Positions 1,027 to 52,046 of a DNA stretch of 55,181 bases are shown one piece after another (the stretch's first letter is position 1; the number at the start of each line of letters is the position of its first letter). Source of the stretch: Candidatus Magasanikiibacteriota bacterium (GTDB taxonomy: Bacteria > Patescibacteriota > Patescibacteriia > Magasanikbacterales > GWA2-37-8); the NCBI GenBank assembly GCA_041665405.1, contig JBAYIZ010000007.1:1-55181 (forward strand), in the 5' to 3' direction. The notes beneath the pieces are model-generated. The model saw only the letters and a list, made by a program, of their open reading frames with translations, was not told where the DNA came from and did not search any database. The position numbers were made by a program, and so were the translations under genes.

Positions 1027-1055
1027 TTGACAAATCCATAAAGTTGTGATAATAT
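1027..1055 (+). promoter_or_regulatory. Sigma70-like promoter reading into GC-enriched island A
   Basis: TTGACA (1027-1032), N17, TAATAT (1050-1055). Divergent from the TrmB-like gene. Confidence 0.55.
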
Positions 1056-1167
1056 TAAATGTTTCATTATTGAAAAACAATGAAACAGCCCACAAAAGGA
1101 TAAATTATCCTGTTTCGATGAAAGTCGGGATGAAACGGGCTAACTCTTTCACAATTCTGAGGGCACC

Positions 1168-1530
1168 ATGGAACGCAAGGAATTTGAAGCGCGACTTTGT
1201 ACAATTCTTGGCCAGGACAGTTTGCCTGGTTGTATGAGTTGTTGTGTCCCATGCGAAATCTGGGAACCCATGTTTGGTCATGAGTACATTCTGGGAGGTT
1301 CCAAGTATGCGAAATGTCGATTGCAGACCTCTCGTAGTCCCACCAAACATCAGATGTCCGGGATCCTGTATCTGATCCATGATGTTGGTCTGGTTTGCGA
1401 GGAAGTTTTGTCTCCCAATGTCAATGGTGGAAAGGTCTTCTTGAGCAAAACTTGCCTCAGATGTATCAGTGGCACTGACTTCGTGGATGCTGTATTCGAG
1501 GCGATTGAGCGTAAGAAGGAGGTGCTGTGA
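1168..1530 (+). CDS. Hypothetical Cys-rich 120-aa protein (island A). Strand and coding status are uncertain.
   Basis: ATG is preceded by GAGGG. The promoter and terminator are on this strand, and codon position 1 is G-rich. However, a fully in-register antisense ORF (1105..1551, 148 aa, GTG start) is also open. Confidence 0.4.
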   Translation: MERKEFEARLCTILGQDSLPGCMSCCVPCEIWEPMFGHEYILGGSKYAKCRLQTSRSPTKHQMSGILYLIHDVGLVCEEVLSPNVNGGKVFLSKTCLRCISGTDFVDAVFEAIERKKEVL

Positions 1531-1634
1531 CTGAGTGTATTCGGGTCTCACTCACCCGCGTTGGTCGGCACGCAGTCCGACACTCATGCGTCTCCCGCTG
1601 GCACAATGCCAGCGGGATGTGGCATCGGCACTAA

Positions 1635-1700
1635 ACCATCGGCCTACTACATTAGAGTAAAAAATTTTTACTTTGATGTAGCCGATGGTTTTTTGTTTTT
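1635..1700 (+). terminator. Long imperfect hairpin plus T-run ending the island A transcript
   Basis: ACCATCGGC...GCCGATGGT arms followed by TTTTTTGTTTTT. Confidence 0.55.
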
Positions 1701-1773
1701 GTATTGTCTCAATGATAAAAAGATGATAGTATTTAATTTGTGAAATGATTATTAATTTGTTTAAAATAATTTT

Positions 1774-2643
1774 ATGCCAAAAGATAAATATACCGCCGTG
1801 TGGGTTTCACATACATCTATCTCCGATTGGCTCAAATGTCCGCGTGCTTATTATTTGAAAAATGTTTATCGTGATCCAGTGACTAAACACAAAATAAAGA
1901 TGATGTCACCGGCGCTGGCTTTGGGGCAGAGTGTGCATGAGGTGTTGGAATCATTATCTCAGTTGGCACGTGGTAGTCGATTTAGCGAACCATTACCAAC
2001 AAAATTTGAACGCGCTTGGGCAAAAGTAAAAGGTGAAAAAGGTGGTTTCACCAACGATGACACAGAATATGGATACAAAAAACGCGGATTGGAAATGTTG
2101 GCGCGTGTGTATAATCATCCTGGTCCGATAAATAATTTGTCGGTAAAAATTCAGATGGATTTGCCGTATTATTGGTTGAGTGAAGAAGATAATATTATTT
2201 TATGTGGCAAGGTGGATTGGTTGGAATATTTGCCAGACACGGATAGTGTACATATCATAGATTTTAAAACAGGAAAAATTCAAGAAGAAGAAAGTTCGTT
2301 GCAGTTGCCAATATATAGTTTGCTAGTTTCTAAATGCCAAAAAAGAAAAACCAGTAAGGCTAGTTATTGGTATTTGGCGGAAAATGATAATCTAACCGAA
2401 AAACAAATTCCTGATTTGGAAGAATCAGAAAAAAAGATTTTAGAAATTGCGCAAAAAATGAAAGTGGCGCGGCAAATAAATCGTTTCAAATGTCCAAATG
2501 GGGAAGAAGGGTGTTTCGCTTGTAAACCGTTTGAAGCTATATTAAAAAAAGAAGCGAAGTTGGTCGGGCAAGATGAATATGGAGCAGATGTGTATATAAT
2601 GGATAGGGCAGAGGAAGAAAATAGAGATGGGGAAATTTTGTAA
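1774..2643 (+). CDS. PD-(D/E)XK nuclease, Cas4/AddB-like, with a probable 4-Cys cluster
   Basis: 289 aa. GKVDWLEY...HIIDFKTGK (D...D/E-x-K) and LQLPIYSLL (QxxxY). One N-terminal Cys (WLKCPRAYY) plus C-terminal CPNGEEGCFACKP. Confidence 0.65.
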   Translation: MPKDKYTAVWVSHTSISDWLKCPRAYYLKNVYRDPVTKHKIKMMSPALALGQSVHEVLESLSQLARGSRFSEPLPTKFERAWAKVKGEKGGFTNDDTEYGYKKRGLEMLARVYNHPGPINNLSVKIQMDLPYYWLSEEDNIILCGKVDWLEYLPDTDSVHIIDFKTGKIQEEESSLQLPIYSLLVSKCQKRKTSKASYWYLAENDNLTEKQIPDLEESEKKILEIAQKMKVARQINRFKCPNGEEGCFACKPFEAILKKEAKLVGQDEYGADVYIMDRAEEENRDGEIL

Positions 2644-2645
2644 AC

Positions 2646-2712
2646 AAAAAAACCACTCGTTGCCAATAAGTTCAATGATTTAAACTCATTGGCATGGACG
2701 AGTGGTTTTTTT
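2646..2712. terminator. Bidirectional hairpin terminator
   Basis: AAAAAAACCACTCGT...ACGAGTGGTTTTTTT with inner TGCCAAT/ATTGGCA pairing. Flanked by an A-run and a T-run. Confidence 0.7.
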
Positions 2713-2766
2713 ATTCTCCTTCCAAGCCTGACCCCGACATAGTCGGGGTGTGCTGGGGGTGGGAGG

Positions 2767-3159
2767 CTACGGGCGCTTGTCGTCGACGGGATCATCGTCG
2801 CCATCATCGTCGTCGAGGGGGTCATTATCGTCATCCTCCTCGTCGTCGAATTCATCGACGTCGAACTCCTCCTCCTCATCCTCCTCGTCGTCTTGTTCTG
2901 TCGGACGCAACACGACGTGGCCGCGGTTCACTGCCAGCTTTCTAAGAGCGGCCCCAGCGACCAGTGGTCCGAACCCGAAGACGAGGAACACTGCCCCGCA
3001 GATCGCCATTTGATCCTGGTAATTGCGGAAGACGTCGACATCCTCCTCACCAACGACCCTCGTCAAGAGAACCACGAAGACGGTCGCACTGAGTGCAAGC
3101 ACCGCCGCTCCAATCCAGGACAGCACTCGACCGACGAGATGTATGGTCTTGGGCTTCAT
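2767..3159 (-). CDS. Hypothetical 2-TM membrane protein with a poly-acidic C-terminal tail (island B)
   Basis: 130 aa. Two hydrophobic helices, then TEQDDEEDEEEEFDVDEFDDEEDDDNDPLDDDDGDDDPVDD. G/C-ending codons. GC hairpin ACCCCGAC-ATA-GTCGGGGT (2731-2749) lies downstream. Confidence 0.6.
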   Translation of the reverse strand: MKPKTIHLVGRVLSWIGAAVLALSATVFVVLLTRVVGEEDVDVFRNYQDQMAICGAVFLVFGFGPLVAGAALRKLAVNRGHVVLRPTEQDDEEDEEEEFDVDEFDDEEDDDNDPLDDDDGDDDPVDDKRP

Positions 3160-3237
3160 TCAGCACCTGCCTTGATTCCAATTCAGAAAACTTTCCACGC
3201 TCATGCGCGGCCAGTCATTCCGAAGTTGATGTGACTT

Positions 3238-3267
3238 ATTCTAGCTAAATATTTAGCTCATTGTCAA
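3238..3267 (-). promoter_or_regulatory. Sigma70-like promoter for the island B gene, with a 16-bp perfect palindrome in the spacer
   Basis: Minus strand reads TTGACA (3267..3262), N18, TAGAAT (3243..3238). AGCTAAAT/ATTTAGCT at 3243-3258. Confidence 0.45.
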
Positions 3268-3397
3268 TTATTGTTGGAGAACGACCAATTCAACTGTGGA
3301 TAACTATTGATCAAATATCTCAAAAAATGTCATTTTTCCTTATATATTAGCCAAGAATCGGCAAAAAACTTGACAATTTCATCTTTGCTCGCTTCAT

Positions 3398-3426
3398 TTG
3401 ACAAAACTTCATTTTTGTATTATTAT
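3398..3426 (+). promoter_or_regulatory. Candidate rpoBC promoter, which would give a ~290-nt leader
   Basis: TTGACA (3398-3403), N17, TATTAT (3421-3426). Confidence 0.45.
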
Positions 3427-3720
3427 TTATCCGCTTTCGTGAGAAGGTCACGTACTTCAAAAAAACGCTTAACAAAGCAATAAAGTGGCATTTATCAGTT
3501 TGGTAAACCAGCTACTTGCAAGGTAATTCAATAAAATTTTTTTCATGCTAACCTTGCCGTTTTCCGCTAAAATATAACGAAAAAGCCATAAAAGCCTATT
3601 TTTTTGGCACTTTTTTTGTTTGTATTTTCAGATTCCCACTCCCCACTTTCGTGAGGACAAGCTTCGCGGGAATGACAATCATCAATTTTTTATAAAAAAT
3701 TTATTTAAAAACTTCACCTT

Positions 3721-6700
3721 ATGCCTGTATTCAAACGCCAAGCACTCAAGGAAAAAGATAGAAAGTTTTTTACAAAAGTAAAAAATACTATCCCATTGCC
3801 AAACCTTATTGAATTGCAATTGGATTCATATAATTGGTTTGTAAAAAATGGCATTAAAGAATTATTTGAAGAAGTTTCTCCAATTACCGATTTCTCTGGA
3901 AGAAATTTGGAGTTATATTTTGAAGACTATTATTTGGATGAACCTCGTTTTGATGAAGCGACTTGCAAAAAACGCAACGTTACTTTCGAGGCTCCACTTC
4001 GTATTACTGCGCGTTTGACCAATAAGGCAACCGGTACTACAAAATCTCAAGAAATTTATTTGGGCGATGTACCAATGATGACCAATCGTGGTACTTTCAT
4101 TGTGAACGGTATCGAACGGGTTATCGTTTCTCAGCTTATTCGTAGTGCTGGTGCTTTTTTTACTGCTCAGAGTGAACGCGGACGTCGCTATTATGGCGCC
4201 AAAGTTATTCCAAATCGTGGTGCTTGGCTTGAAATCGAAACTGATATTAACAATGCAATTTGGGTGAAGGTAGATCGCAAACGTAAAGTGGCCGTCACTT
4301 CTCTTTTGAAATCTTTTGGTTTTGATGATGAAGAAAAAATTCGCGCATATTTCAAAGATGTAAATAATCATCCTACTATCGACTATGTTGATGCCACACT
4401 GAAAAAAGATTTGGCAAAAAATATGGACGAAGGTTTGATTGAAGTTTATAAACGTATTCGTCCTGGTGATTTGGCAACTTCTGAAAATGCTAAAGGTTTA
4501 ATCCATTCCATGTTTTTCAATTTCGAGAGATATGATTTGGGTCGCGTGGGTGTTTATAAATTCAATACCAAATTTGATTTACCTTCCAAATCTGAAGATT
4601 ACGACAACAAAGAAAATCGCGTGTTGTCTACCGAAAAATTATTGGCAGTAATCAAAGAAGTGATTCGTTTGAATGTCACTCAGGAAGAACCAGATGATGT
4701 AGACCATCTTGGCAATCGCCGTATTCGCGCGGTAGGTGAACTTGTACAAAATCGTTTTCGTGTTGGTTTGGCTCGTATGGAACGTATTGTGAAGGATCGC
4801 ATGAGTACATATGATGTCGAACAACTGGTACCAAACAAAGTTATCAACGCTCGTCCAGTAATGAGTGCCATTCGTGAATTCTTTATGAGTTCACAGATGT
4901 CACAGTTTATGGATCAGCACAATCCATTGTCTGAGCTTGAGCACAAACGTCGTTTGTCCGCTCTTGGCCCAGGTGGTTTGTCTCGTGATCGCGCTAGTTT
5001 CGAAGTTCGCGATGTACACACTACTCACTATGGTCGCATCTGTCCGATTGCTACTCCGGAAGGTCCGAATATTGGTTTGGTAAATCACCTTTCCAGTTAT
5101 GCTCGTATCAATGAATTTGGTTTTATCGAAACTGCTTATCGCAAAGTTTTGCGTGAAGTAAAAAATGAAGTCTCTTTGACTGAAGGTGAAATTTTGCGCG
5201 GCGACGTCGGTAGTATAAAAGATGGTACAAAAATTACCAAAGAAATTGCTACTAAATTGGCCAAAGAAAAAGTAGCTGTAATAAAAGTGAAGCCACGTGT
5301 TACCAATGAGGTAATTTATTTGAGTGCTTTCAAGGAAGAAAAATATATTACTGCTTCTGCCAAAACCAAAACAGACGATGAAGGATATTTCCTCGAAGAT
5401 TATGTGCCAGCTCGTGTCAACTCCAAACCTGGTGTGGCCAAAACTATTGATTTAGAATTTATCGATGTTTCATCCGCACAAATTGTGAGTGTGGCTACTT
5501 CTTGTATTCCATTTTTGGAACATGATGATGCTACTCGCGCTTTGATGGGTACAAACATGCAGAGACAGGCTGTACCTTGTATTCGCCCAGAACCACCATT
5601 GGTTGGTACTGGTGTAGAACATGAAGCGGCTGTTTATTCTGGTCAGGTAGCTATCGCTGATGAAGATGGTGAAATCGTAGAATGTGATGGTGCACATGTG
5701 GTATTAAAAGGTAAGAAAGAAACTCATACATATAGTTTAAATAAATTTTTACGTGCCAACGCCGCCACTTGTATCAACCAACATCCGACAGTTGTTGTTG
5801 GACAAAAAGTAAAGAAGGGCGACTTCTTGAGTAATGGTCCAAGTATTGCAGAAGATGAATTGGCTCTTGGTCAAAATGTATTGGTAGCATATATGGCATG
5901 GGATGGTTTCAATTATGAAGATGCTATTATCGTGTCTGAACGAGTAGTACAAAAAGATCGTTATACTTCTATTCATATTGAGGACTATACAATCGATGTT
6001 CGCGAGACAAAACTTGGACCGGAAGTTGTCACTTCTGATATTCCAAATGTTTCTGAAGAAAAATTAAAAAATCTTGATTCCGAAGGCATTGTTCGCATTG
6101 GTGCCGAAGTAAAATCCGGCGACATTTTGGTAGGCAAAATTACTCCAAAAGGTGAAACAGAATTATCCGCAGAAGAAAGATTGTTACGTGCCATCTTTGG
6201 TGAAAAAGCTCGCGATGTTCGTGACTCTTCCTTATATCTGGAACATGGTGAACATGGAAAAGTTATCGGCATTCAGATTTTCTCTGAAGAAGCTGGTGAT
6301 AAATTGGAACCAGGTGTTATAAAACAAGTACAAATCACAGTGGCTGATATGCGCAAAATTCAGGTAGGTGACAAAATGGCTGGTCGCCATGGAAACAAAG
6401 GTGTTATTTCCAAAGTTGTTCCTTCTGAAGATTTACCATTCTTGGAAGACGGTACTCCTATTGATATTGTACTTTCACCATTGGGTGTTATTTCTCGTAT
6501 GAACTTGGGTCAGTTGCTCGAAACTCATTTGGGTCTAGCCGCCAACGCCCTTGGATATAAAGTGGCTACTCCAGTTTTGAACGGTGTGACTGAAGAACAA
6601 ATTTATGAAGAATTGAAAAAAGCTGGTCTGCCAGTTTCTGGTCAGGCTCAACTTTATGATGGTCGTACCGGTGAACCTTTTGATCACAAGACTACTATTG

Positions 6701-7164: not shown

Positions 7165-7175
7165 TTTTTTCTCCT

Positions 7176-11054: not shown

Positions 11055-11064
11055 TTTAAATTTG

Positions 11065-11096: not shown

Positions 11097-11101
11097 ATTT
11101 A

Positions 11102-11881
11102 TTATTTATTTTGTTCCCACAATACTTGAAATATTGATCTAAACATCGTTACGATATATTCATCTTCTATGAGTAGGGCTAGAGGAGTTTTTGGTTGCCA
11201 AATAATAATTTTGTTCGCATAAAGATGAAACGAAGTTGGAAAGTTTTGCATATTTTTTATATAACGAGTTTCGCGCTTTTGTTTTGCGTCGTCTAGTTTT
11301 AATTTTTCTGCATCTGAGCCACCAAATATCAAAGCCTTCATGAATATTTGTTTTTTTAGTCTTTGGGCAATCCATTTTTCTTCTTGAGCCCAACCGATGA
11401 AACCACTGATTAAATCTTGGACAGATCCGCAATAAATAATTTCATTTTTGCTTTCATCAAGTACTTCAAAAAAGATTTTTAAAAATTGATCTTTTCCTTC
11501 AAAAATTTTTACCGATGTCGGCAGTTCACCTTGTCTATATAAAGTCAGTAGATCAGGCAGGGCAGAGTAAAGTTTTACATCCTGTTCACTCAGTGATTCT
11601 CTTTTTTTTGCAAGCAACTCACGCACCAATGTGGGAGATTCAACCATAAAAGTTCGATTGTGTTTTTTTCGTTCCGAAAATTTCGCCAATCCGTGATTTT
11701 CTAGCTCAGAAATAATCTTATAAATGTTGGGGCGATTAATATTTAACTGTTTTGCAAGTTGGCTTATTGAAACAGGGCCAAGAGAGAGTGATGTGGTATA
11801 CAGTTCAATTTCGTGATTTGTTAACCCTAACGCCTTTAATGAACTGTAAAGCGTTTCTTTTATTTCTATTTGGCTAAACAT
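11102..11881 (-). CDS. TrmB-like winged-helix transcriptional regulator (second copy)
   Basis: HTH region LGLTNHEIELYTTSLSLGPVSISQLAKQLNINRPNIYKIISELENHGL. Start moved to MFSQIE (11881) because the -10 box at 11915..11910 lies inside the longer ORF. Confidence 0.65.
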   Translation of the reverse strand: MFSQIEIKETLYSSLKALGLTNHEIELYTTSLSLGPVSISQLAKQLNINRPNIYKIISELENHGLAKFSERKKHNRTFMVESPTLVRELLAKKRESLSEQDVKLYSALPDLLTLYRQGELPTSVKIFEGKDQFLKIFFEVLDESKNEIIYCGSVQDLISGFIGWAQEEKWIAQRLKKQIFMKALIFGGSDAEKLKLDDAKQKRETRYIKNMQNFPTSFHLYANKIIIWQPKTPLALLIEDEYIVTMFRSIFQVLWEQNK

Positions 11882-11909
11882 AGAGAAAAAGTTAAATATA
11901 TGTATATAT

Positions 11910-11938
11910 ATTATATACAATAATGCTTAATTTGTCAA
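11910..11938 (-). promoter_or_regulatory. Promoter of the second TrmB-like gene
   Basis: Minus strand reads TTGACA (11938..11933), N17, TATAAT (11915..11910). Confidence 0.55.
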
Positions 11939-11955
11939 GTGTCAGCCTAAAACAC

Positions 11956-11984
11956 TTGACAAATACGTATAAATAGTATATAAT
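11956..11984 (+). promoter_or_regulatory. Promoter reading into GC-enriched island C
   Basis: TTGACA (11956-11961), N17, TATAAT (11979-11984). The two -35 boxes are part of the inverted repeat TTGTCAAGTG (11932-11941) / CACTTGACAA (11953-11962). Confidence 0.6.
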
Positions 11985-12010
11985 AATCAGTTATTAAATA
12001 ACAAATGGCC

Positions 12011-12049
12011 GCTCCAGCGTGGGTTTAAGTCTTAAACCCACGCTGGAGC
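12011..12049 (+). repeat. 39-nt perfect palindrome (19-bp arms) in the island C leader
   Basis: GCTCCAGCGTGGGTTTAAG-T-CTTAAACCCACGCTGGAGC, followed by two more small hairpins (12055-12070 and 12074-12091). Confidence 0.85.
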
Positions 12050-12132
12050 CGATTCCGATCATGAGATCGGGTGCCAGGGCTTATGTCCTGGTTCCATTGG
12101 ACGGTATAGTTCTTTCACAATTGAGGTGTAAT

Positions 12133-12771
12133 ATGTCACGTCGAATCCTGGTCGTTGAGGACAATGCGAAGCATCTGGATGACGCCCGCGCCTATGCGGC
12201 TGATCTTATCGAGTGTGAAGTGGATTTCGCCACTACGCTCGCTGAGGCGATGGTCTTGCTAACGGCGAACAAGTACGACGGCGTGATCTCGGATGTGTTT
12301 TTCCCGGCGGACGATCAGTCCTCGGCTGACACGTTCGAGAACGCTCTCGCGCTCAACAAGAAGCTCCGTGAAATGCGGATTCACCACGTGTTCAACACGG
12401 CGGGGAACCATCACGGCAAAAAGTATGACGGCTTCTTGCACAAGACGCCAGAACTGATCTGGGTTCCTGGGAGTGAATATCCCGGCGATTTGTTCGTCAG
12501 CTCCGGCATGGTCATCGAAGCATATCCCCATGATAGTGATGGGGAGCATGCGACCAAGCAGTGGCAGGCGGCGTTCCGATATATATTGCTCTCTCTTGCA
12601 TTTCTCGAAATGCCAGACATGGGCCAGGATATCGTTCAAAGCCAGGAGCACCTGGGTGAGAAGTCGGCGCTTCGTTCTTTCCCCTACGGAGATTACGGTG
12701 AGCTGACCGAGAAGTTCTGGGGTTGCATGGACGAGCGCGTTCTTGCGATCTTTGCTCAGTTCAACGCCTAG
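12133..12771 (+). CDS. Orphan receiver (REC)-like domain protein with an uncharacterised C-terminal half (island C)
   Basis: 212 aa from the ATG preceded by GAGGTG. MSRRILVVEDN then DGVISDVFFP resemble receiver beta1 and beta3 acidic residues. No kinase or output domain was recognised. Confidence 0.5.
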   Translation: MSRRILVVEDNAKHLDDARAYAADLIECEVDFATTLAEAMVLLTANKYDGVISDVFFPADDQSSADTFENALALNKKLREMRIHHVFNTAGNHHGKKYDGFLHKTPELIWVPGSEYPGDLFVSSGMVIEAYPHDSDGEHATKQWQAAFRYILLSLAFLEMPDMGQDIVQSQEHLGEKSALRSFPYGDYGELTEKFWGCMDERVLAIFAQFNA

Positions 12772-12795
12772 CTCAACACCTCACAAACACGCCCT

Positions 12796-12824
12796 TGCCC
12801 CGCGGCGTATCAAATAGCGGGGCA
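12796..12824 (+). terminator. GC-rich hairpin after the island C ORF
   Basis: TGCCCCGC-N13-GCGGGGCA. Only a weak T-run follows. Confidence 0.4.
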
Positions 12825-12970
12825 CAATCTTTAGAAAATCATAAATTGGTTTGTTGAAGATTGAATCAAAGAATAATTATATGCACTCACTAAATCAACG
12901 GGTGATGTTTTATTCCCTTGATTTTTGATTTTAAAGTGGTAAAATAGAGCCAGAATTATAACATATATTT

Positions 12971-20224: not shown

Positions 20225-20440
20225 TTATTTCTTTTTAGTTTTGCGAACAGTGCGAGCGGCGCGTTTGGCTACATCTACAACTTGACGACCACGATATGTT
20301 CCACAAAAAGCGCAAGCGCGGTGTGGAAGGGTAGTTTTGTTGCATTTTGGACAGATAGCTGGATTGGCAGCTTTTAGTCCATGGTGAGCGGAACGTTGGC
20401 GTTTATCGCCACTGGTACGGCGATGACCAGGTAAACCCAT
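20225..20440 (-). CDS. rpmF: 50S ribosomal protein L32
   Basis: 71 aa. Basic N-terminus and CPKC...CAFCGTYRGR zinc ribbon. Confidence 0.8.
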   Translation of the reverse strand: MGLPGHRRTSGDKRQRSAHHGLKAANPAICPKCNKTTLPHRACAFCGTYRGRQVVDVAKRAARTVRKTKKK

Positions 20441-20572
20441 ATTGGTAAGATTACTGAGTAAAAAAATTAATCTAGAGTTTTCTAAATTATGTTCTTAGTA
20501 TACACTAAAAATGTGGGTTTGTAAAGGGTCAAGGTTGATTTAATCTTTGTTTTAGACTAAAATACAGTAATT

Positions 20573-21711: not shown

Positions 21712-24700
21712 TTACAACATCGTCACACTCGTCACCTTGTCACCCTCCACTTTGAATCTCATGAGGCGCACACCTTGAGTGGCGCGACCAGAGGAGGAGA
21801 TAGATTTGAATGGCAGGCGGATAACTTGTCCATGAGTAGACATGAGTAATAGATCTTTTTCGTTGGCATCTACTATATCCACTACTTTGGCAAAAGTGAG
21901 ATTACCGGTTTTGGCAGTAATTTCGGCAGTCTTGATGCCACTACCACCACGACCCTGTACTTTATATTCTTTTAGTACAGTGCGTTTCCCAACACCGTTT
22001 TCACCCACAGTCAAAAACACTAGAGAAGTATTTTTTGGGTCCACTATATCCATACCAATCACTGAATCGCTACCCTTGAGACGCATACCACGAACACCGC
22101 CGGCAGTACGACCCATTTCGCGAACATCTTTTTCACGGAAGCGAATGGCTTGACCTTGTTTGGTGGCGATCATGATTTCATTGTTGCCGTTACTTGGTTT
22201 GACCCATTCGAGATTATCATCTGGTTTTAGTTTTAAAGCGATCAATCCATTGCGACGGACATTGGCAAAATCTTCCAGAGCGGATTTTTTGATATTGCCA
22301 CGGGTGGTTACCATTACTAAATATTTGTAGTTACTCAAATCCCCAGTACCTAATAGGGCAGTCACTTTTTCATTTGGTGCTAATTGTAAGAAGTTTACCA
22401 AGGCTTGGCCTTTGGCAGTGCGACTTGCTTGAGGAATATCATATGCCATCAGCTGGAATACACGACCACGATTGGTAAAGAATAAAATGTTATCATGTGT
22501 GCTGGTAGCCATGAGATGATCAATACACTCTTCTTCCTTGGTAGTCACACCTATCACACCTTTGCCACCACGAGATTGTTGGTGGAAAGTATCCGGAGGA
22601 AGACGTTTGATATAACCATCAGTAGTGATCATGATCACCGTTGGTTCATTTGGAATCAAATCTTCGGTGGTAAATTCTTGAACACCACGCGCGACAATTT
22701 TGGTGCGACGTTCTTCACCATATTTCGCCTTGATTTCTTCTGTTTCAACTTTTACAATATTTAAGATCTTTTTAGCTGAAGCCAAAATACTCTCCAATTC
22801 TTTAATGATCAGTCTTTTCTCTTTTAATTCATCTTCGATTTTTTGTCTTTCCAAATTAGCCAATTGTTGTAATTTCATTTCCAAAATAGCAGTCGCTTGG
22901 CGATCGCTAAATTTGAATTTTGACATCAAATTTACTTTGGCTTCTTCTTTATTTTCACTAGCGCGAATCAATTTGATAATCAAATCAATTTTATCTAGCG
23001 CCATAGATAAACCTTCCAAAATGTGGGCGCGGTCTTTGGCTTTTTCCAAATCAAATTCAGTACGACGACGCACTACCACTTGACGATGTTTGATGAATTC
23101 TTCCAAAATATTTTTCAAATTCAAAACACGTGGTTGGATGCCATCTACCAGAGCCAATAGATTGTAATGGAAAGTAGTTTGAAGATCGGTTTGTTTATAA
23201 AGTTGATTCAAGACTTTTTGTGGATAGGCGTCTTTTTTTAATTCAATTACCACACGCACACCATCTTTGTTGGATTCGTCGCGCAAGTCGCGAATGCCTT
23301 CCATTTTTTTCTCTTGGACAAGATTGGCAATTTTTTCGATCATCTCGGCCTTGTTCACCTGATATGGAACTTCGGTCACGATGATTTGGAACATGCCACT
23401 TTTTTTGGCTTCTTGAATTTCAGCCTTAGCACGAATCACTACGCCACCACGGCCGGTAGCACAAGCGGTCAAAATATCTTTTTTATTATAAATAATACCA
23501 CCAGTAGGGAAGTCTGGGCCTTTGATAATTTCGGCCAATTCTTCTACTGTAGTATCTGGTTCGGCAATGAGTTTTCCAATACCGTCACATAGCTCAGACA
23601 GGTTGTGTGGTGGTACAGAGGTAGCCATTCCGACGGCAATACCCACTGTGCCGTTCAATAGTAAGTTTGGTAATTTTGCTGGCAAAACCATTGGTTCTTT
23701 GTGTGAACCATCATAGGTAGGATTGAAATTGACAGTATTTTTTTCAATATCTAAAAGCATTTCCTCGGCGATAGTTTGTAGGCGAGCCTCAGTATAACGC
23801 ATTGCAGCCGCAGAATCCCCGTCCATTGAGTTGTGTACAAAAATTCCAGAGGCGAGTGCGAAATTGTGAGTATTATCTATAGTCAAATCAAATACATCTT
23901 CCCGAGTATTTATTTTTTCTACACTTTTTACTTTGTGATTTTTGGTAATGTCTTGTAATACACATTCCAAATTTTCTGTATAATATTTTTTGAAACCAGT
24001 ATCCCAAGAGGTAGAAGCACCATAAGGATAAATTATTTTCCTTATTTTTTCGTACAACTCTTGATTCAATGTTTGGTATCGAGTAAATGTTTCTTTGCAA
24101 ACAGTTAAAAATTTCTTTTTTCCGGTATTGTTGGTAGTGCGCTTCTTATTTGATTCGGCAATTTTATTATGGAACAGTTGTTTATATTCTGGTAATTTCC
24201 ACAGTCGTTTCAAAGTGGCAGTTGCACGTTTACTTAATTCCTCTATTTTTTCTGGATGTGCTTGAATGTATTCTTTGTTGACTCTGCTTAGAGTTTGTCT
24301 CATTTTTTCTTTGTATTCCGGATTTTGCCAGTTGGTCAAATTCCTAGATTTCATTCTTTCAACACTTTTCGCGCGATTTTCTGGATTCGCCCAAAATTCT
24401 TTGCGACCTTGTGCAATTTTTTCGCGGTAGGATTCGTCTTGGTGTTTCAATGTGGCATTATTATAATGAATTTTCCAATGTTCACCCCAATGCATGCGAG
24501 TAATATTCTCTGGGTTGTTGTTGGTTTTATCAAAATTAACGTGATGACGTACTCGTCCATCTGCTTTATTGTATTTTTTATTTGTTAAATTATAGTTGTC
24601 TGTCAGGTGATGTGCGGGTATCCATTCTTTAGTTTTGTTTTGTAATATCAATTTATAACCACGACGATTTAGTCGGTCGGTAGTTTCTGAAATCTTTTCA

Positions 24701-25353
24701 TATATTGGCATCAATGAAGTTTCGGCTTGTAAATTTTGCGCTTCCATATAACTGCCGTCACGCAACATAAACAAATGATTTGGGGTACATCTTATTTCTT
24801 CGTCGTTATCCAAAGTAATTTTTACTAGCTCGGCATTTTTTCTAGTTAAACGTGGATGTTTTATTTCGGCGATAGAAATCAAGCCAACACTATTGACAGT
24901 GTAGGTATAATTTTTTTTGCCCTGTTCAAATTCTTTTATTAAATCATCAAAACTCAAATCACGACCATCTGTTAATTTTACTTTAGTATCAATAGTAAAA
25001 CAGCCGAAGTTACCCTGGCCATCTACCAATTGATGACGCATTGAAAAATCCTGCGCCATACGCACCATAGCCTCATATATAGAAGAATCACCATGAGGAT
25101 GGTATTTGGCCATCACCTCACCGACTACGTGAGCGGATTTACGGAATTTACCAGAGTGGCGCAAGCCAATATTCCACATTGCATAAAGAATACGACGGTG
25201 CACTGGTTTGAGCCCATCGCGAACATCTGGTAACGCACGTGAAACAATTACGCTCATGGCATATTCCAAATATGAATTTTTCATTTCACTGACAATCGAG
25301 GTCTGTAAAATTTTTCCGATATCTCCTTTTGGTAGTTCAAGTTTGTTTTGCAT
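21712..25353 (-). CDS. gyrA: DNA gyrase subunit A precursor (contains an intein)
   Basis: 1213 aa. Extein blocks [15 protein letters not shown] and GNFG | [17 protein letters not shown]. The mature protein would be 822 aa. Confidence 0.95.
23830..25002 (-). mobile_element. Intein (391 aa) with an HNH-like endonuclease insert, within gyrA
   Basis: Residues 118-508. Starts with Cys ([10 protein letters not shown]), block B is TPNH, and it ends in FVHN followed by Ser+1. Central [30 protein letters not shown] (HNH-like) plus three W-x-(N/L)-P-E-(N/Y) repeats. Confidence 0.85.
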
Positions 25354-38870: not shown

Positions 38871-38980
38871 AAAAACACCACGAACATAATGACTTTTGCG
38901 CTTTTTTCACCCGCGATGGTGAAAGGATGAGCCTCGGCTCATAACCCGCTTAAAAGTAATTATGTTCGTGGTGTTTTTTT
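38871..38980. terminator. Branched 110-nt hairpin element (E4) between convergent genes, likely a bidirectional terminator
   Basis: Outer stem AACACCACGAACATAAT / ATTATGTTCGTGGTGTT flanked by A6 and T8. Inner hairpins TTTCACC/GGTGAAA and ATGAGC/GCTCAT. Confidence 0.6.
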
Positions 38981-38991
38981 TATTTTGATTT

Positions 38992-44632: not shown

Positions 44633-44667
44633 AATTATTATGTGGTTTATCTTTTTATAATACTATA

Positions 44668-44791: not shown

Positions 44792-44846
44792 GTATAAACA
44801 ACGGTACGAATTGAACCATAAATAGTATAACAGAGATATCCCCAAA

Positions 44847-44875
44847 TTGCCAAAATCAATTTTTTGGCATATAAT
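44847..44875 (+). promoter_or_regulatory. Promoter of the MgtE-N/CBS - NRAMP pair, with a palindromic spacer
   Basis: TTGCCA, N17, TATAAT. TGCCAAAA / TTTTGGCA 8-bp arms span the -35 and spacer. Confidence 0.5.
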
Positions 44876-44896
44876 AAAGCCGTCTAAATATATTTT

Positions 44897-47384: not shown

Positions 47385-48519
47385 TCGTCAAAATTTGAAG
47401 ATGTTTTTTTGCACTTTCGTTCCAGTTGTATTTAGAGGCTAATTCTGAGCCTCTTTTTATATATTCCTCATATAGTTTGCTGTTTTCAAGAATAAGTTTC
47501 ATTGCTATGGTGAGTTCAGAAACATTATTTGGGTTAATATAATAGGCAGCATTATTTGAAACTTCTGGTAATGAAGAGCGGTTGCCAGTGATGACCGGGG
47601 TACCTATTTTCATCGCCTCAATAATAGGGAACCCAAAACCTTCATAGAAACTTGGGAATACAAATAGATTGGCTTGTGCTAGTAGAGCGGGTTTATCGGC
47701 ATCTGCTACATATCCCAAAAATTTGATGTGGTCACGTAATTTTGAAGAATTGGCACACTCATAAACCAATTTATTTTTCCATCCCGATCCTCCAGCAATT
47801 AATAAATGAAATTTGTCACTCAAATGTTTTGGTAGTTTTTCAAAGGCCTTGATCAGCCCCAATAAATTTTTGCGTGGTTCAATCGATCCTAAAAACAAAA
47901 TAAAATTTTCCGGTAAGTCGTATTTTTTTTGAATAATAGTTTTTTGTAATTTTAGTTTTGGCTCGGAAACATCAAAATTTGGTGAGATACCTGGGTAGAT
48001 TACTAATATTTTGTTTTCTTCTATTTGATAATATTGAATCAAATCCCGTTTTGTATTTTCTGATGGTACGACAATAATATTTGCCTCCTGGCATTGTTTT
48101 TTTGGGTTAACTAATTTATGCCACAGTCGTTGTTTAAAAGTATTAAATTCAGGAAACAACTCAAAAGAAATATCATGAATTGTTAATATATGTTTGGTTT
48201 GTTTATTTAGCGATAAAAAATTGATATTGGGAGAATACCAAATATCAATTTTTTCTGGAAGTAGTTGATTAACGTTTATCAAACCTAAAGCCAACGCTAG
48301 ATTTACAAATTTGTTGGGATAACGGATCGAGATAAAATAAACATTTGGTTGTGACCAGATTAACAAATTTTTATCTGTTTTTTTAAAAGAATTAGAAAAT
48401 AAAAAGTAATTATTATCTTTATCTTCTTTAAAAATAGCGCTTAGCAACTCAAAAGTATACTCGCCAATGCCAGTTTTATTTTTAACCATGAGAGACCTGA
48501 TATCGACACCAATGTTCAT
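47365..48519 (-). CDS. Glycosyltransferase family 1
   Basis: 384 aa. EGFGFPIIEAM motif. Confidence 0.8.
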   Translation of the reverse strand: MNIGVDIRSLMVKNKTGIGEYTFELLSAIFKEDKDNNYFLFSNSFKKTDKNLLIWSQPNVYFISIRYPNKFVNLALALGLINVNQLLPEKIDIWYSPNINFLSLNKQTKHILTIHDISFELFPEFNTFKQRLWHKLVNPKKQCQEANIIVVPSENTKRDLIQYYQIEENKILVIYPGISPNFDVSEPKLKLQKTIIQKKYDLPENFILFLGSIEPRKNLLGLIKAFEKLPKHLSDKFHLLIAGGSGWKNKLVYECANSSKLRDHIKFLGYVADADKPALLAQANLFVFPSFYEGFGFPIIEAMKIGTPVITGNRSSLPEVSNNAAYYINPNNVSELTIAMKLILENSKLYEEYIKRGSELASKYNWNESAKKHLQILTTNQKTQ

Positions 48520-48521
48520 AA

Positions 48522-49625
48522 CTAATTTAAACTATTTTGAAATTGTGTGAAGTGATCGTTGATAAATGATTGAATTTTATTTTTGAATTTATAAGCGGCA
48601 AAATTTTGGGCATGAAGACGGATTTTTTCGCTGTCCCAACAGTAAGGATCAAATTTTGACACGCTATCGAGAAGTGATTCCCATGTTTGTTGATAAAAAA
48701 ACATGCCAGTTTCGTTGGATATGATTGTCTCTGTAGCGCCGCCATATCCGTAGGCAATCACTGGTCGGCCAGCGGCCATAGCTTCGACCGGAGTGATTCC
48801 GAAGTCTTCTTTTTGAGGATGGATAAAGGCTAATGCTCGGCTAAATAAAACAGCTTTTTCACTCTCAGAAATTTTTCCGTAAAATTCAATGTTTGATTTT
48901 GCGATTCTTTTTAGATGTTTAAATTCTGGTCCGATACCAAAAATTTTCAACGGTATATTTAAGCGATTAAAAACTTTTACAACTAAATCCAAACGCTTAT
49001 ATGGCACTAGGCGGCCACCTGCGACATAGTAATCACCAAGCTTGTTGGCAATTTGAAAGCGGTGGGTATCAACAGGCGGGAAAATAATTTCCGATTCGCG
49101 GCGATAATATTTTTTAATTCTTTTTTGAACAGTTTGAGAGTTGGCAATAAAATGATCGACTCGTTGAGTACTCATTTGATCCCAAATACGTAATTGATGA
49201 TTTAACAATGGTAAAATTAACTTAATAAAATAATTACTTTTTAAATCGGACAAATAATTGTTGCCATCTCCCCAAAGAAAACGAGGAGGAGTATGACAAT
49301 ATGAGATATGTAAAGTATCTGGTGAAGTAATAACACCTTTGGCAAAACCACTGGATGAAGAAATAACCATATCATATCCACGCAGATCGTGCTGCTCGGT
49401 GGCCATGGGCATAAAAGGCAAATACCATTGAAAAATATTATTTATGAATGGCATTTTTGACAACCACGACTCTCTGACTTTTTCATGATCCAAATAATTA
49501 ATTTTTATTCGGTCGTGAAATAAAACAAAAATTGGCGCATCTGGCCAAATTTCGTGTAAGGCTTTTAAAACTCTTTCCGCCCCTCCATCTTGCGAAAGAT
49601 AATCATGCACTAGGGCAATTTTCAT
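48522..49625 (-). CDS. Glycosyltransferase family 1
   Basis: 367 aa. EDFGITPVEAMAAGRPVIA motif. Confidence 0.8.
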   Translation of the reverse strand: MKIALVHDYLSQDGGAERVLKALHEIWPDAPIFVLFHDRIKINYLDHEKVRESWLSKMPFINNIFQWYLPFMPMATEQHDLRGYDMVISSSSGFAKGVITSPDTLHISYCHTPPRFLWGDGNNYLSDLKSNYFIKLILPLLNHQLRIWDQMSTQRVDHFIANSQTVQKRIKKYYRRESEIIFPPVDTHRFQIANKLGDYYVAGGRLVPYKRLDLVVKVFNRLNIPLKIFGIGPEFKHLKRIAKSNIEFYGKISESEKAVLFSRALAFIHPQKEDFGITPVEAMAAGRPVIAYGYGGATETIISNETGMFFYQQTWESLLDSVSKFDPYCWDSEKIRLHAQNFAAYKFKNKIQSFINDHFTQFQNSLN

Positions 49626-51043
49626 ACAATCGATCCAGTTTTTCGAATTACAACAAAGGGTGTTTTAATCAAAATAATAAAATCAATGAAGAAATTCCAG
49701 TGTTCAATATAAAAAATATCTAAACGAGCTTCTTCATCAAAGCTCAAATCACTGCGTCCGGAAATTTGGGCCATTCCCGTAATACCTGGTTTGATAGCTA
49801 AAACAGTTTTGTGCCATTTTTCGTATTTATTTACCTCTCTTGGTTGATGAGGACGAGGGCCTACTAAACTCATATTTCCAACCAACACATTAAAAAACTG
49901 AGGTAATTCGTCCAGGCTAAGAAGACGGATAAAACGACCAAAAGGTGTGATGCGAGGATCATTTTTTATTTTATAAACCGGGCCTTGTTTTTCGCTTTTT
50001 TCTTTTATTAATTCTTTTTCTACCTCGATGGCTTCTTGCCCAGATTTTCCAAATTGTTCGCCAGTACAATATTTTTGGTACATAGAACGGAATTTGTAGG
50101 TGAAGAATTTTTTACCTTCTTGTCCGACGCGTTCATTTTTGTAAATAATCGGTCCGCCGGTTTCAATTGAAATTATTAACGCGATAATTAAAAATATTGG
50201 AGATAAAATTATTAAGAAAAATATACTCCAAAATATATCGCTACCTCTTTTTAAAATTCTACCCCAGCCAGTGAGGCGGGTGCGACGGAGTTCAATAATA
50301 GGGATACCAGCGATAGTGGAAATTGCCATATTAGAGGATATCGTAGCAAATAAATCCGCGGAATATTTGAAAGTAATATGGTGTTCATTGGCAAAGTCAA
50401 TGGTTTGTAATGCCTCATCCTCTTTACTTTTTGGATCAGCAAAAATTAGTTCGTCCAAGTCATTTTTTTGTATTTTGGATAATTCATCTTGATTAAAACT
50501 TTTTAAAACACCAACTATTTTGTATCCGAGATAGGGCTTGCTTTCAAGTGTTTGTTGAATTTGGTCGGCTACACTTTGAGTACCGATAATTACAGTGCGA
50601 CGTAAACCAACACCCATTCGATAAAAAAGAATTTTTAATAATCGTAGAATTGTGCGAGCGAGTGAAACATAGATGACAGCCAAAACTCCACTAGCTAAAA
50701 CCAAAAAGCGGGAATCAAATTTTTGTAAAGTAAAAAATACATAAATAGTAATAGCGGCGAATCCAGTGGCGCAGGCAAAAAATACTTTGTTTAATTCTTT
50801 GGCCAATTTGCGGTTGGGGTCGGCGGAATATAATCCTGAAAAAGCAAAAATAAAAATCCACCCGGCAGAGGCAAACAATACAATGGGCCAATAATTTTCC
50901 CAAGACAAATTAAATAAAATAGGGCGAATACTGGTGACTAATCCAGTAAAGCGCAAACTATAAGCTGTAAAACCAGCCAAAATCAACATTAAATAATCCA
51001 AAGGAAGTTGAAGAAAGGCAAATGTGAGCTCAAAACGTTTCAT
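49622..51043 (-). CDS. Polyprenyl-phosphate sugar phosphotransferase (WbaP/bacterial sugar transferase family)
   Basis: 473 aa. N-terminal TM bundle. C-terminal DELPQFFNVLVGNMSLVGPRP signature. Confidence 0.85.
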   Translation of the reverse strand: MKRFELTFAFLQLPLDYLMLILAGFTAYSLRFTGLVTSIRPILFNLSWENYWPIVLFASAGWIFIFAFSGLYSADPNRKLAKELNKVFFACATGFAAITIYVFFTLQKFDSRFLVLASGVLAVIYVSLARTILRLLKILFYRMGVGLRRTVIIGTQSVADQIQQTLESKPYLGYKIVGVLKSFNQDELSKIQKNDLDELIFADPKSKEDEALQTIDFANEHHITFKYSADLFATISSNMAISTIAGIPIIELRRTRLTGWGRILKRGSDIFWSIFFLIILSPIFLIIALIISIETGGPIIYKNERVGQEGKKFFTYKFRSMYQKYCTGEQFGKSGQEAIEVEKELIKEKSEKQGPVYKIKNDPRITPFGRFIRLLSLDELPQFFNVLVGNMSLVGPRPHQPREVNKYEKWHKTVLAIKPGITGMAQISGRSDLSFDEEARLDIFYIEHWNFFIDFIILIKTPFVVIRKTGSIV

Positions 51044-51129
51044 ATTGTTATAATAGCATTCCCGTATAAACGGGAATCATGGGTATATTTTATGCTAAAT
51101 ATGAATGTTCGTCAATTGAAAGATTGTTA

Positions 51130-51158
51130 TTGACAAAATTGCTATTCTTTGTGATAAT
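51130..51158 (+). promoter_or_regulatory. Promoter reading into GC-enriched island D
   Basis: TTGACA, N17, GATAAT. Inverted repeat GTCAAT-N12-ATTGAC overlaps the -35. Confidence 0.5.
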
Positions 51159-51371
51159 TTGATGTTAATCTATGAACTAGATTAAACAGTTCTTTGATAT
51201 TTACCCAGTTTTCTTTTTAGTTTATTTTAGACAAATATATTAAAAAGAAAACTGGGGGGAATTTAACACTTGTAGTGTTTTATTCCAAGGTGAACTATTC
51301 ACAAGCAGGAGCATACGATGAGCAACAGCTCGAAGCATGGCGTCGTGGTTGACAAGATCATCGCTCTTTAG

Positions 51372-51926
51372 ATGGGGTTGGTCGCCGCGTGGAACTGGCT
51401 CATGGTCTTCCTTACGGTCAAGGACCTTCCTCCTAGGTTCCCGCAAGGTTTTCCTTCTGCAGCCATTGCTGCCGAGCACGGCTTCACCGTGCTGAGTGAT
51501 ACCGAACCGAGTGCCGATCTCGACGTGACGAAGCTCTATTTCAGGTCGGTGTTCTGTGACACTCAAGCACGTAGGGTTTCAGGTAGTAGTTTCTGGGAAG
51601 TGTATTTCAATGGAGTCTTTCGGTGTGCACGGCCTTGGGGGTGTCTTGGCCTCTGCGACGCACCGAGACTGTTGGCTCAGATAGATAAGGCCACCGGTTT
51701 CGACATGACCAACGGAGAGGTCTTGCTCCTTGGTACGATCTTGGCCGAAGAAAGAACCGGCCGCCGCGCCGTCGGCTGCCTCAGGACCTGCAAAGGCCCC
51801 GAGAAGAACCCCAAATGGCATTGGGCTTTGGGGTTCTTGTACACGACCAATGATCGGGTTGGGTCGGTTAGATTCACCACATCACCCTATGGCGGCTGCG
51901 CGACCACGATCGTGAGTCGCGAATAG
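51372..51926 (+). CDS. Hypothetical 184-aa protein (island D), preceded in frame by a 17-codon ORF (51318-51371) ending in TAG
   Basis: Third codon positions are predominantly G/C in this frame and less so in the in-register antisense frame. GGAG lies 6 nt before the ATG at 51318. No family recognised. Confidence 0.45.
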   Translation: MGLVAAWNWLMVFLTVKDLPPRFPQGFPSAAIAAEHGFTVLSDTEPSADLDVTKLYFRSVFCDTQARRVSGSSFWEVYFNGVFRCARPWGCLGLCDAPRLLAQIDKATGFDMTNGEVLLLGTILAEERTGRRAVGCLRTCKGPEKNPKWHWALGFLYTTNDRVGSVRFTTSPYGGCATTIVSRE

Positions 51927-51980
51927 TTTCAGAGCATCGCATCAGTCACTTCGGTGCGGCGTGTCTGGACTTGTTTTTCT

Positions 51981-52046
51981 GCCCTCGGCATTTCTGTTCT
52001 CACCAATCGGTGGGGGTAGCAATGTCCGAGGGCTTTGCTATTTTTT
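51981..52046 (+). terminator. Compound GC hairpin plus T-run ending island D
   Basis: GCCCTCGGCAT...ATGTCCGAGGGC with inner CACC-AATC-GGTG, followed by TTTGCTATTTTTT. Confidence 0.6.

Follow-up and report, generated by a model that had tools for sequence, protein, structure and literature searches.

Four GC-rich single-gene islands in a Magasanikbacteria chromosome as probable accessory transcription units at variable intergenic sites

Why should short GC-rich stretches, each holding a single gene, stand in the otherwise AT-rich chromosome of an ultra-small groundwater bacterium of the candidate phyla radiation (CPR), and by what route did they come to be there? This question is raised by a contig of 55,181 nucleotides (nt) from a Candidatus Magasanikiibacteriota bacterium (GenBank assembly GCA_041665405.1, contig JBAYIZ010000007.1), the whole of which was analysed and is referred to here as the window. 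An original prediction, made from the sequence alone, singled out four such islands and explained them by repeated acquisition of small foreign genes from a GC-richer donor, possibly the host of this episymbiont, followed by capture of a promoter. The analysis described here leads to a somewhat different picture, in which the four islands are probably horizontally exchanged accessory transcription units residing in recombination hotspots of a CPR chromosome. This best-supported reading is ordinary in kind, as it involves small accessory units in integration hotspots that are exchanged among related and unrelated CPR bacteria.

The compositional contrast itself is real. The window has a G+C content (GC) of 37.8%, and when it was scanned throughout in 200-nt windows, with runs called at a GC of at least 0.48, long GC-rich runs were limited to 1201-1700, 2601-3250, 12001-12850 and 51251-52050, corresponding to island extents of approximately 1100-1640, 2715-3235, 12005-12830 and 51260-52035. 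GC values for islands 1, 2, 3 and 4 are 0.497, 0.582, 0.544 and 0.544, respectively, compared with 0.370 +/- 0.03 for size-matched background windows. The predicted GC-rich islands in AT-rich DNA are thus borne out, with z values of 3.8, 6.3, 6.2 and 6.1, and the difference from the background, which was to be checked for significance, holds in that no background window reaches the GC of any island. By dinucleotide signature, islands 1 and 2 depart from the background (P <= 0.005), island 3 is a borderline case (0.048) and island 4 does not stand out (0.14). The remaining short GC peaks are tRNAs, parts of rpoB, rpsA (S1) and pilB, and the small rpmF gene. The last of these, a peak at 20251-20450, was considered as a candidate fifth island and rejected, since it is the small minus-strand rpmF gene (20235-20441, -), which encodes ribosomal protein L32 of ~70 amino acids (aa) according to our own translation and is too short for the list of ORFs, which starts at 80 aa.

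All four open reading frames (ORFs) are present as they had been described, with lengths of 120, 130, 212 and 184 aa. The preference for G/C-ending codons that had been ascribed to them stands for islands 2 to 4, where GC at third codon positions (GC3) is 0.65-0.71, 0.65-0.68 and 0.65, respectively, against a median of 0.32 (standard deviation derived from the median absolute deviation, 0.044; 44 ORFs), but island 1 reaches just 0.50. First codon positions are shifted as well, with a GC1 of 0.61-0.75 in islands 2 and 3. The composition of the islands, first codon positions included, appears to be that of a GC-richer gene pool. The GC-rich stretch sets in at, or no more than ~100 nt from, the predicted transcription start and ends at the terminator, and the island promoters and the adjacent genes for TrmB-family regulators are AT-rich and lie outside it. 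For islands 1-4, transcription is predicted to start at about 1061, 3231, 11992 and 51165, respectively.

The next step is to ask whether these islands belong to the core of the genome. Sister genomes were defined as contigs carrying an RpoB at least 90% identical to that of the window (Candidatus Magasanikbacteria), which yielded five further lineages; their rpoB differs from that of the window at 12-13% of nucleotides (L066/L070, L067-L069, L071-L073 and L077-L079) or at 17% (L080/L081). Between the window and L067, rpoB has a synonymous divergence (dS) of 0.74, and yebC and the nuclease gene have values of 1.5-2.6, so that synonymous sites of core genes, with an overall range of 0.7-2.6, are near saturation. 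The sister lineages are related species, not strains. The comparison of presence and absence covers the sites of islands 1-3, and its outcome is clear: islands 1-3 are accessory DNA in inserted segments at variable sites between core genes. The sites are empty in some sisters or hold unrelated cargo, in agreement with the expectation that the islands are accessory. However, two other parts of the original prediction are not supported. Promoter capture finds no support, as the promoters lie inside the inserts and are absent from empty sites, and the statement that intact native genes abut each island fails for islands 1 and 3, because the TrmB-family genes beside them belong to the inserts.

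Site A, adjacent to the tRNA-Leu gene, holds the following features in the window.

179-1755 (.): module A, consisting of TrmB_a and island 1, between the tRNA-Leu terminator and the PD-(D/E)XK nuclease gene
170-907 (-): TrmB_a, a TrmB-family winged-helix regulator (Pfam PF01978, E = 2e-13, above cut-off)
1027-1055 (+): island 1 promoter, TTGACA-17-TAATAT, 10/12 plus a TG extension
1060-1167 (+): island 1 5' leader, with a stem-loop at 1060-1087, a second hairpin, TCTTTCACAATT at 1145-1156 and the Shine-Dalgarno sequence GAGGG (fold z = -3.8)
1168-1530 (+): island 1 ORF, 120 aa, Cys-rich, ORFan, of uncertain coding status
1531-1695 (+): island 1 3' untranslated region (UTR), with GC-rich hairpins followed by a terminator hairpin at 1633-1692 and a T-run (fold z = -7.4)

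The sister contig L071 aligns by blastn to positions 1-178 and 1756-2643 of the window with only 129 nt in between. Other sisters carry different cargo at this site, namely an HNH gene in L066, L070 and L077 and an EamA-like gene in L067. TrmB_a, which is AT-rich (GC3 0.29), divergent to island 1 and provided with its own promoter at 963-935 (11/12), is not found at site A in any sister genome compared. As regards the HNH cargo, partial and complete copies of the tRNA-Leu region (L066 7320-7401 and 7916-8048) flank an AT-rich gene for a 156-aa HNH endonuclease in L066, and also in L070 and L077. From this arrangement, the HNH gene appears to have been inserted with duplication of part of the tRNA gene.

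Site B lies on the other side of the nuclease gene, upstream of rpoB, and the cassette that it holds is read from the minus strand.

2644-3291 (-): cassette B (island 2), 648 nt, fitting exactly into the interval from the stop codon of the PD-(D/E)XK nuclease gene to the conserved TGTGGATAACTAT that precedes rpoB
3267-3238 (-): island 2 promoter, TTGACA-18-TAGAAT, 11/12
2767-3159 (-): island 2 ORF, 130 aa, with two predicted transmembrane helices followed by a poly-acidic tail
2646-2711 (-): cassette B terminator hairpin, ~65 nt, bidirectional, at the 3' end of the cassette and kept in L067

This site is empty (0-1 nt) in L071, L077, L078, L079 and L080. In L066 and L070 it is occupied by an unrelated GC-rich gene cassette in the opposite orientation, and in L067-L069 by a divergent, AT-richer version with the same cassette frame as in the window. 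This frame, common to the window and L067 cassettes, comprises the -35 box, the leader start CAACTTCGGA, the ATGAARCCYAAG start, the CCCCGACTATGTCGGGG hairpin and the 65-nt terminator hairpin. That island 2 is coding is supported by strong codon periodicity (p = 3e-17) and by the positional homologue in L067, a protein of 82 aa that is 31-32% identical, with a nonsynonymous divergence (dN) of 0.71 and a GC3 of 0.40-0.41. A search of 1.84 billion cluster representatives returned only island 2 itself and one weak match. The protein is predicted to be a fast-evolving small two-helix membrane protein with an acidic tail.

The terminator hairpin of cassette B recurs, with a conserved loop sequence, at window 2646-2711, L067 9169-9234 and L066 5958-6021, and only there (nhmmer E = 1e-17 to 1e-19). 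The copy in L066/L070 closes a different GC-rich cassette, which is located between ribonucleotide reductase and Cob genes; in L066 this cassette codes for a 132-aa minus-strand protein that was missed by the gene caller, a 118-aa plus-strand ORF having been annotated instead. It should also be noted that the long region upstream of rpoB (window 3292-3720) is conserved in L066, L067, L071, L079 and L080. It starts with TGTGGATAACTAT, the reverse complement of the DnaA-box-like TTATCCACA, and also includes a leader of ~300 nt and two TTGACA boxes. Whichever way they are oriented, all cassettes at site B stop exactly at TGTGGATAACTAT.

Site C, on the far side of rpoBC, again contains a two-gene module.

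11098-12907 (.): module C, consisting of TrmB_b and island 3, 1.8 kb, between the rpoC terminator and the yebC promoter
11102-11920 (-): TrmB_b, a TrmB-family regulator (Pfam PF01978, E = 2.5e-12, above cut-off), AT-rich (GC3 0.27)
11930-11964 (.): 13-nt perfect inverted repeat, ATTTGTCAAGTGT, 9-nt spacer and ACACTTGACAAAT, a candidate operator
11956-11984 (+): island 3 promoter, 12/12
11992-12132 (+): island 3 5' leader, with a strong hairpin at 12007-12051, a second hairpin, TCTTTCACAATT at 12111-12122 and the Shine-Dalgarno sequence GAGGTG (fold z = -7.7)
12133-12771 (+): island 3 ORF, 212 aa, with a receiver-like (REC-fold) N-terminal half and a family-specific C-terminal part
12797-12823 (+): island 3 3' hairpin, GC-rich, read from the sequence (fold z of the 3' UTR = -2.6)

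The site is essentially empty in L071 (138 nt) and L080 (~40 nt). Elsewhere it holds a 226-aa GC-rich membrane-type gene (L066), Bro-N and a 135-aa gene (L067), or an amino-acid permease (the P0065 contig). The inverted repeat spans the -35 boxes of two back-to-back 12/12 promoters, one at 11938-11910 (-) and the other being the island 3 promoter. Because this candidate operator covers both -35 boxes, TrmB_b probably represses itself and the cargo. TrmB_a and TrmB_b are 23% identical, and among the cargo proteins of the window and of the sister and related loci no relatedness was found except for this pair and that of island 2 with the 82-aa protein of L067. The sample ERZ27249449 in ENA contains the window's genome as a 121-kb contig and the sister L066 as an 85-kb contig, which means that two related species of Magasanikbacteria co-occur there whose GC-rich cargo differs at the same hotspots.

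Island 4 stands apart from these sites, near the end of the window, between genes for a sugar transferase and adenylate kinase (adk).

51130-51158 (+): island 4 promoter, TTGACA-17-GATAAT, 11/12 plus a TG extension
51165-51317 (+): island 4 leader, with AT-rich stem-loops, including an 18-bp stem at 51204-51256, and the Shine-Dalgarno sequence AGGAG (fold z = -6.6)
51318-51371 (+): 17-codon ORF MSNSSKHGVVVDKIIAL, read from the sequence, which has the only good Shine-Dalgarno sequence of island 4
51372-51926 (+): island 4 ORF, 184 aa, ORFan
51927-52046 (+): island 4 3' UTR, with a terminator hairpin at 51981-52033 and a T-run (fold z = -7.4)

The 17-codon ORF ends in a TAG that lies immediately before the ATG of the 184-aa ORF and in the same frame, an arrangement that could represent a coupled leader peptide, a nonsense-interrupted gene of 202 codons, or a read-through stop. 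AlphaFold2 prediction of the 184-aa protein without an alignment was uninformative (predicted local distance difference test score, pLDDT, 43), and the flanking proteins are all singletons at 90% identity.

Sharp compositional boundaries, such as those of the four islands, might be produced by chimeric assembly or contaminant reads, and nothing else points to such an artefact. Island 4 and both of its junctions are identical in three independent assemblies from three samples, which excludes chimeric assembly for this island. For the proteins of islands 1-3 there are records from two contigs of separate origin (55 kb and 121 kb), and for that of island 2 also from a 1.3-kb JGI contig; for these three islands chimeric assembly is unlikely. 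In addition, the promoter, start codon context and terminator of cassette B are also found in a sister genome, and each island is framed by promoter and terminator in the correct orientation. Overall, the chance that the islands are artefacts of this type is minimal.

What, then, do the islands consist of? Each is a full transcription unit with a promoter, a leader opening with a stem-loop, a Shine-Dalgarno sequence, one ORF, a structured 3' UTR and a terminator. The original prediction of a near-consensus promoter upstream of every island is confirmed, with matches of 10/12 to 12/12. However, ten sites in the window score at least 11/12 and native genes are also preceded by equally good promoters, so that promoter strength reflects the build of this genome and is no special mark of the islands. 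The GC-rich 3' hairpins are likewise present, but the distinction drawn between them and the terminators elsewhere does not apply to islands 1 and 2, which are closed by terminator hairpins of the ordinary A/T-flanked kind.

The leaders of islands 1 and 3 have in common the exact 12-mer TCTTTCACAATT, located 11-12 nt before the start codon and seen nowhere else in the window or in 81 fetched loci. Apart from this 12-mer and the one terminator hairpin, no shared terminal repeats of the IS200/IS605 or attC type were found at the island ends by inspection. The earlier statement that no shared repeat exists therefore requires qualification: the islands have no common ends, but two of the leaders share a 12-mer and the island 2 hairpin is reused in a sister. 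The shared 12-mer, the pairing with TrmB genes, the inverted repeat at island 3 and the reused hairpin are suggestive of modular cassettes that form a family, but do not prove that a dedicated mechanism of mobility exists.

GC-rich islands in AT-rich genomes are a classic signature of structured RNA genes, and the possibility arises that islands 1 and 4 are GC-rich genes for structured non-coding RNAs, their ORFs being by-products of the scarcity of stop codons in GC-rich DNA. Neither the island 1 nor the island 4 protein has a homologue in 5.8 billion proteins. Codon periodicity in island 1 is weak (p = 0.07), long ORFs are present on both of its strands, and the antisense ORF (1105-1551, 148 aa) is statistically as plausible as the sense one. 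Furthermore, the whole transcripts fold far better than shuffled sequences (z = -6.8 for island 1 and -5.6 for island 4). However, the excess folding energy is located in the UTRs (z = -2.6 to -11) and not in the coding cores, which for islands 1-4 give z values of -0.35, +0.79, -3.1 and -2.7, respectively, compared with -0.81 +/- 0.99 for native coding windows; the value for the island 4 core is -2.7 on both strands. Rfam yielded no island match at the gathering threshold for the whole window, or at E <= 1 for each island, the only matches being tRNAs and chance microRNA-type matches. Both islands have a Shine-Dalgarno sequence properly spaced from the ATG and an ORF longer than in 99% of shuffles (P = 0.008 for island 4), and island 4 shows moderate codon periodicity (p = 8e-4). 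In island 1, the plus strand is favoured because promoter, Shine-Dalgarno sequence and terminator all lie on it. An origin of islands 1 and 4 as RNA genes thus seems rather improbable.

Island 3 is the only cargo with a sizeable family, and this family bears directly on the question of the donor. The ORF has strong codon periodicity, and 46 homologues besides itself were found at 36-60% identity. Their alignment has an invariant core of 18 columns, including E9, D10, D54, T89, H93, H94, G95, K142, Q143 and W144, of which E9, D10, D54 and T89 are found where, in the alignment, the residues of a putative receiver-type phosphorylation pocket would be expected. The Pfam REC domain (PF00072) matches residues 5-59 only, below threshold (16.8 bits vs a cut-off of 30.2). 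AlphaFold2 with the family alignment gave a model with a pLDDT of 90.5, of which the ~90 N-terminal residues (strands 1-4) matched receiver domains in Foldseek with a probability of 1.0, an E value of ~4e-4 and a template modelling (TM) score of ~0.55 relative to the target; the remaining ~120 residues had no Foldseek match. The label REC-like given to this protein earlier may apply to the predicted fold over ~90 residues, but is not supported by Pfam at its threshold. On the basis of the model, the protein is best described as receiver-like, not as a demonstrated member of the receiver family. For the other cargo, searches of Pfam, PADLOC and PHROGs returned nothing (islands 1, 2 and 4), sub-threshold REC-type matches to island 3 being all that these resources gave.

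Members of the island 3 family were found only in CPR/DPANN-type metagenome sequences or in unbinned small contigs with AT-rich flanks. A close clade has roughly 40 members, which lie mostly on Logan contigs of 1-2 kb. In the nine loci of this clade that were examined (52-56% identity), the gene has a GC3 of 0.60-0.84 and the flanks a GC of 0.34-0.49, the gene being GC-richer in all nine, whereas in a more distant clade (36-46% identity) the gene is AT-rich, with a composition like that of its flanks. The neighbours of the close-clade gene differ in every genome. They include TrmB-family genes in three loci, an IS1595-type insertion sequence fragment, an IS200-like transposase, a transposase-type helix-turn-helix fragment that matched below threshold and, as judged by eye, a tRNA accompanied by a GIY-YIG-like reading frame. 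The divergent arrangement with a TrmB gene also occurs beside island 3 homologues in two other CPR genomes, and the TrmB genes beside different island 3 homologues are not one another's closest relatives. Such varied neighbourhoods appear to be the profile of a gene moving among CPR genomes. The original prediction held that genes syntenic and equally GC-rich in all relatives would be ancient core genes. Synteny is not seen, but wherever the island 3 clade was found its gene is GC-rich, which is not predicted by simple recent, unameliorated transfer. A further observation comes from L031, a CPR contig with an island 3 homologue, in which positions 131-1630 hold a GC-rich gene pair (GC 0.53-0.54 in a contig of 0.40), one of the two genes encoding orotidine-5'-phosphate decarboxylase. 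This indicates that GC-rich inserts in such genomes are not confined to ORFans.

These results leave little room for the proposal that the genes were taken from a GC-richer host of this episymbiont. The direction of the compositional difference is the sole evidence for it. The 5.8 billion proteins in which islands 1 and 4 lack a homologue include metagenomes from similar samples, island 2 has no match of note among the 1.84 billion representatives, and all relatives of island 3 belong to the CPR/DPANN-type sequences or unbinned small contigs described above. No phage or viral matches were found either, and the host origin, as it had been proposed, is very unlikely. A phage or viral vector was considered as a separate candidate and rejected, as nothing was found in a tblastn search of islands 1, 3 and 4 against 50,697 phage records or in a scan of IMG/VR contigs for the island 3 family.

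How might such units reach their sites? In the explanation preferred here, they would have entered, and would be swapped, by horizontal transfer, the likely route being DNA uptake followed by recombination in conserved flanking genes. A type IV pilus ATPase (PF00437) is encoded in the window, in keeping with DNA uptake, and bacterial integration hotspots usually work through recombination in conserved flanking genes. The hotspots that hold islands 1-3 lie between the core genes tRNA-Leu, the PD-(D/E)XK nuclease gene, rpoBC and yebC. Islands 1 and 3 are two-gene modules, each with an AT-rich TrmB-family regulator divergent from its cargo, and the coding parts would be drawn from a GC-richer gene pool circulating among CPR bacteria, not from the host. 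Most detected transfers into groundwater Patescibacteria come from other Patescibacteria (PMC12455944), and the apparent movement of the island 3 gene among CPR genomes agrees with that survey.

Several points weigh against exchange from such a pool as the whole explanation. No donor or reservoir was found, in that islands 1, 2 and 4 have no useful homologues and the island 3 clade was never seen in flanks of matching GC. Its close-clade members share no more than 52-60% identity with the window protein, which is too little for all of them to stem from a single recent transfer. The two alleles of island 2 differ by ~0.25-0.3 in GC3 and are saturated in their coding part, and yet share promoter and terminator. 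In addition, the TrmB genes are AT-rich (GC3 0.27-0.29) at less than 200 nt from their cargo, which makes the modules compositionally mosaic; the window holds no mobility gene (integrase or transposase), target duplication at the junctions, or att site; and islands 1 and 4 are translated ORFs by prediction only. The persistent GC-richness requires either an unsampled GC-rich reservoir feeding genes in or an in-place force keeping the transcripts GC-rich.

The second of these possibilities would turn the argument around, as the GC-richness would then be actively maintained in these units and would not be left over from a donor. Two causes of maintenance are possible. One is that selection acts on the transcript and favours, for instance, resistance to RNases that cleave A/U-rich RNA or the avoidance of spurious promoters and terminators. 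The other is GC-biased gene conversion restricted to segments that recombine between genomes; since the flanks of a cassette are non-homologous between genomes, conversion tracts would stop at the cassette ends. A gene-specific GC force of this kind would explain why the island 3 clade is GC-richer than its flanks in nine of nine loci despite 52-60% identity and different locations, why AT-rich regulators stand 200 nt from GC-rich cargo, and why island 2 has a GC3 of 0.65-0.71 and its L067 homologue one of 0.40-0.41 across saturated synonymous divergence. It would also fit the boundaries of the GC-rich part, which is delimited by the transcription start (within ~100 nt) and the terminator, with promoters and TrmB genes remaining AT-rich, and the presence in all four units of 5'-terminal stem-loops and long structured 3' UTRs, with z values of -3 to -11, features that generally stabilise mRNAs.

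However, the coding cores, with the z values given above, are not clearly more structured than native genes, and the accompanying shift in GC1 and amino-acid make-up fits long residence in a GC-rich background equally well. The more distant island 3 clade is AT-rich, as is other hotspot cargo (HNH, Bro-N and a 237-aa gene), and the effects of GC-biased conversion reported in bacteria are far below a change in GC3 from 0.3 to 0.7. Active maintenance of the GC-richness is thus a tentative alternative. It is doubtful, to the same degree, that the islands represent small CPR cassettes, regulator-coupled or stand-alone, whose transcribed part is kept GC-rich by a gene-specific force and not by donor ancestry.

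If the islands are taken as exchanged accessory units, they show similarities to, and differences from, several known systems. They resemble integration hotspots or genomic islets in that related genomes carry differing accessory genes, or none, in one and the same core-gene interval, in that one interval lies beside a tRNA gene (module A only), in their atypical composition, and in that exchange plausibly proceeds via conserved flanks. They differ in that the inserts are tiny (0.65-1.8 kb, with one or two genes) and lack integrase, transposase and repeats, in that three of the four cargo ORFs are ORFans, and in that the islands are GC-richer than the genome that holds them, whereas recently acquired bacterial genes are usually AT-richer. 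Of the features by which an islet is recognised, deviant composition was found, as was absence or replacement in relatives (islands 1-3), but mobility genes, repeats or att sites and a donor lineage were not. Like phage morons, the units consist of a single ORF with its own promoter and terminator and a deviant composition, lie between genes and are patchy in relatives; unlike morons, they are accompanied by no prophage or phage genes or viral matches, their neighbours being tRNA-Leu, rpoBC, yebC, a sugar transferase and adk. Integron cassettes are likewise small, mostly ORFan single-ORF units, and the 3' hairpin of ~65 nt reused on a different cassette recalls them. However, there is no integrase and no array, the island cassettes are scattered singletons with their own promoters, and the cassette B hairpin lacks, by inspection, the attC core sites RYYYAAC / GTTRRRY.

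At the level of the individual modules, the comparison is of a similar type. According to the model, residues 1-90 of the island 3 protein would superpose on CheY-like receivers, with E9, D10, D54 and T89 invariant, but a family-specific segment of ~120 residues with invariant GNHHG and KQW replaces or extends the final part of the receiver fold, and there is no output domain and no partner kinase nearby. In the manner of TrmB regulator-target pairs, island 3 has a regulator and cargo in divergent orientation, back-to-back promoters and a palindrome over the -35 boxes; however, only the N-terminal DNA-binding domain matches, and the sugar-sensing part of archaeal TrmB was not detected.

Two further observations were made in the course of this analysis. 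A repeat element of ~100 nt fills the "empty" versions of hotspots A and C in sister genomes. In the window it lies at 38880-38990 (+), with the conserved core TTTTCGCTTTTTTCRMCCGCGAGGKYGAAAGGATGAGCCTYGGCTCATAACCCGCTCAAA at 38920-38954, and copies are found in L071 (8646-8740, 17378-17476 and 18268-18366), L067 (17372-17470) and L066 (20120-20228). Its core folds as two hairpins within an outer stem that differs from copy to copy yet stays complementary, and is followed by a T-run; the consensus fold has 24 pairs, four of them with compensatory changes on both sides, and the element has no Rfam match. It could represent a small RNA or a terminator motif not described before, or a repeat resembling miniature inverted-repeat transposable elements. 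In addition, gyrA (21712-25353, -; 1213 aa) carries an intein, with an Intein_splicing match at residues 134-508, before the main topoisomerase IV/gyrase A domain match.

Finally, CPR genomes are tiny and streamlined, and how they gain new functions is poorly understood. Here, the intervals around tRNA-Leu, rpoBC and yebC act as exchange points that can be seen at nucleotide resolution, and units of one or two genes, complete with promoter, leader and terminator, are swapped between related species with no visible mobility gene. The cargo, which consists of ORFans, small membrane proteins and a receiver-like family, provides candidates for strain-specific surface or signalling roles in interactions with hosts or phages. 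If a gene-specific force that maintains GC should prove to be true, it would bear on the long-standing question of what sets the GC content of bacteria.

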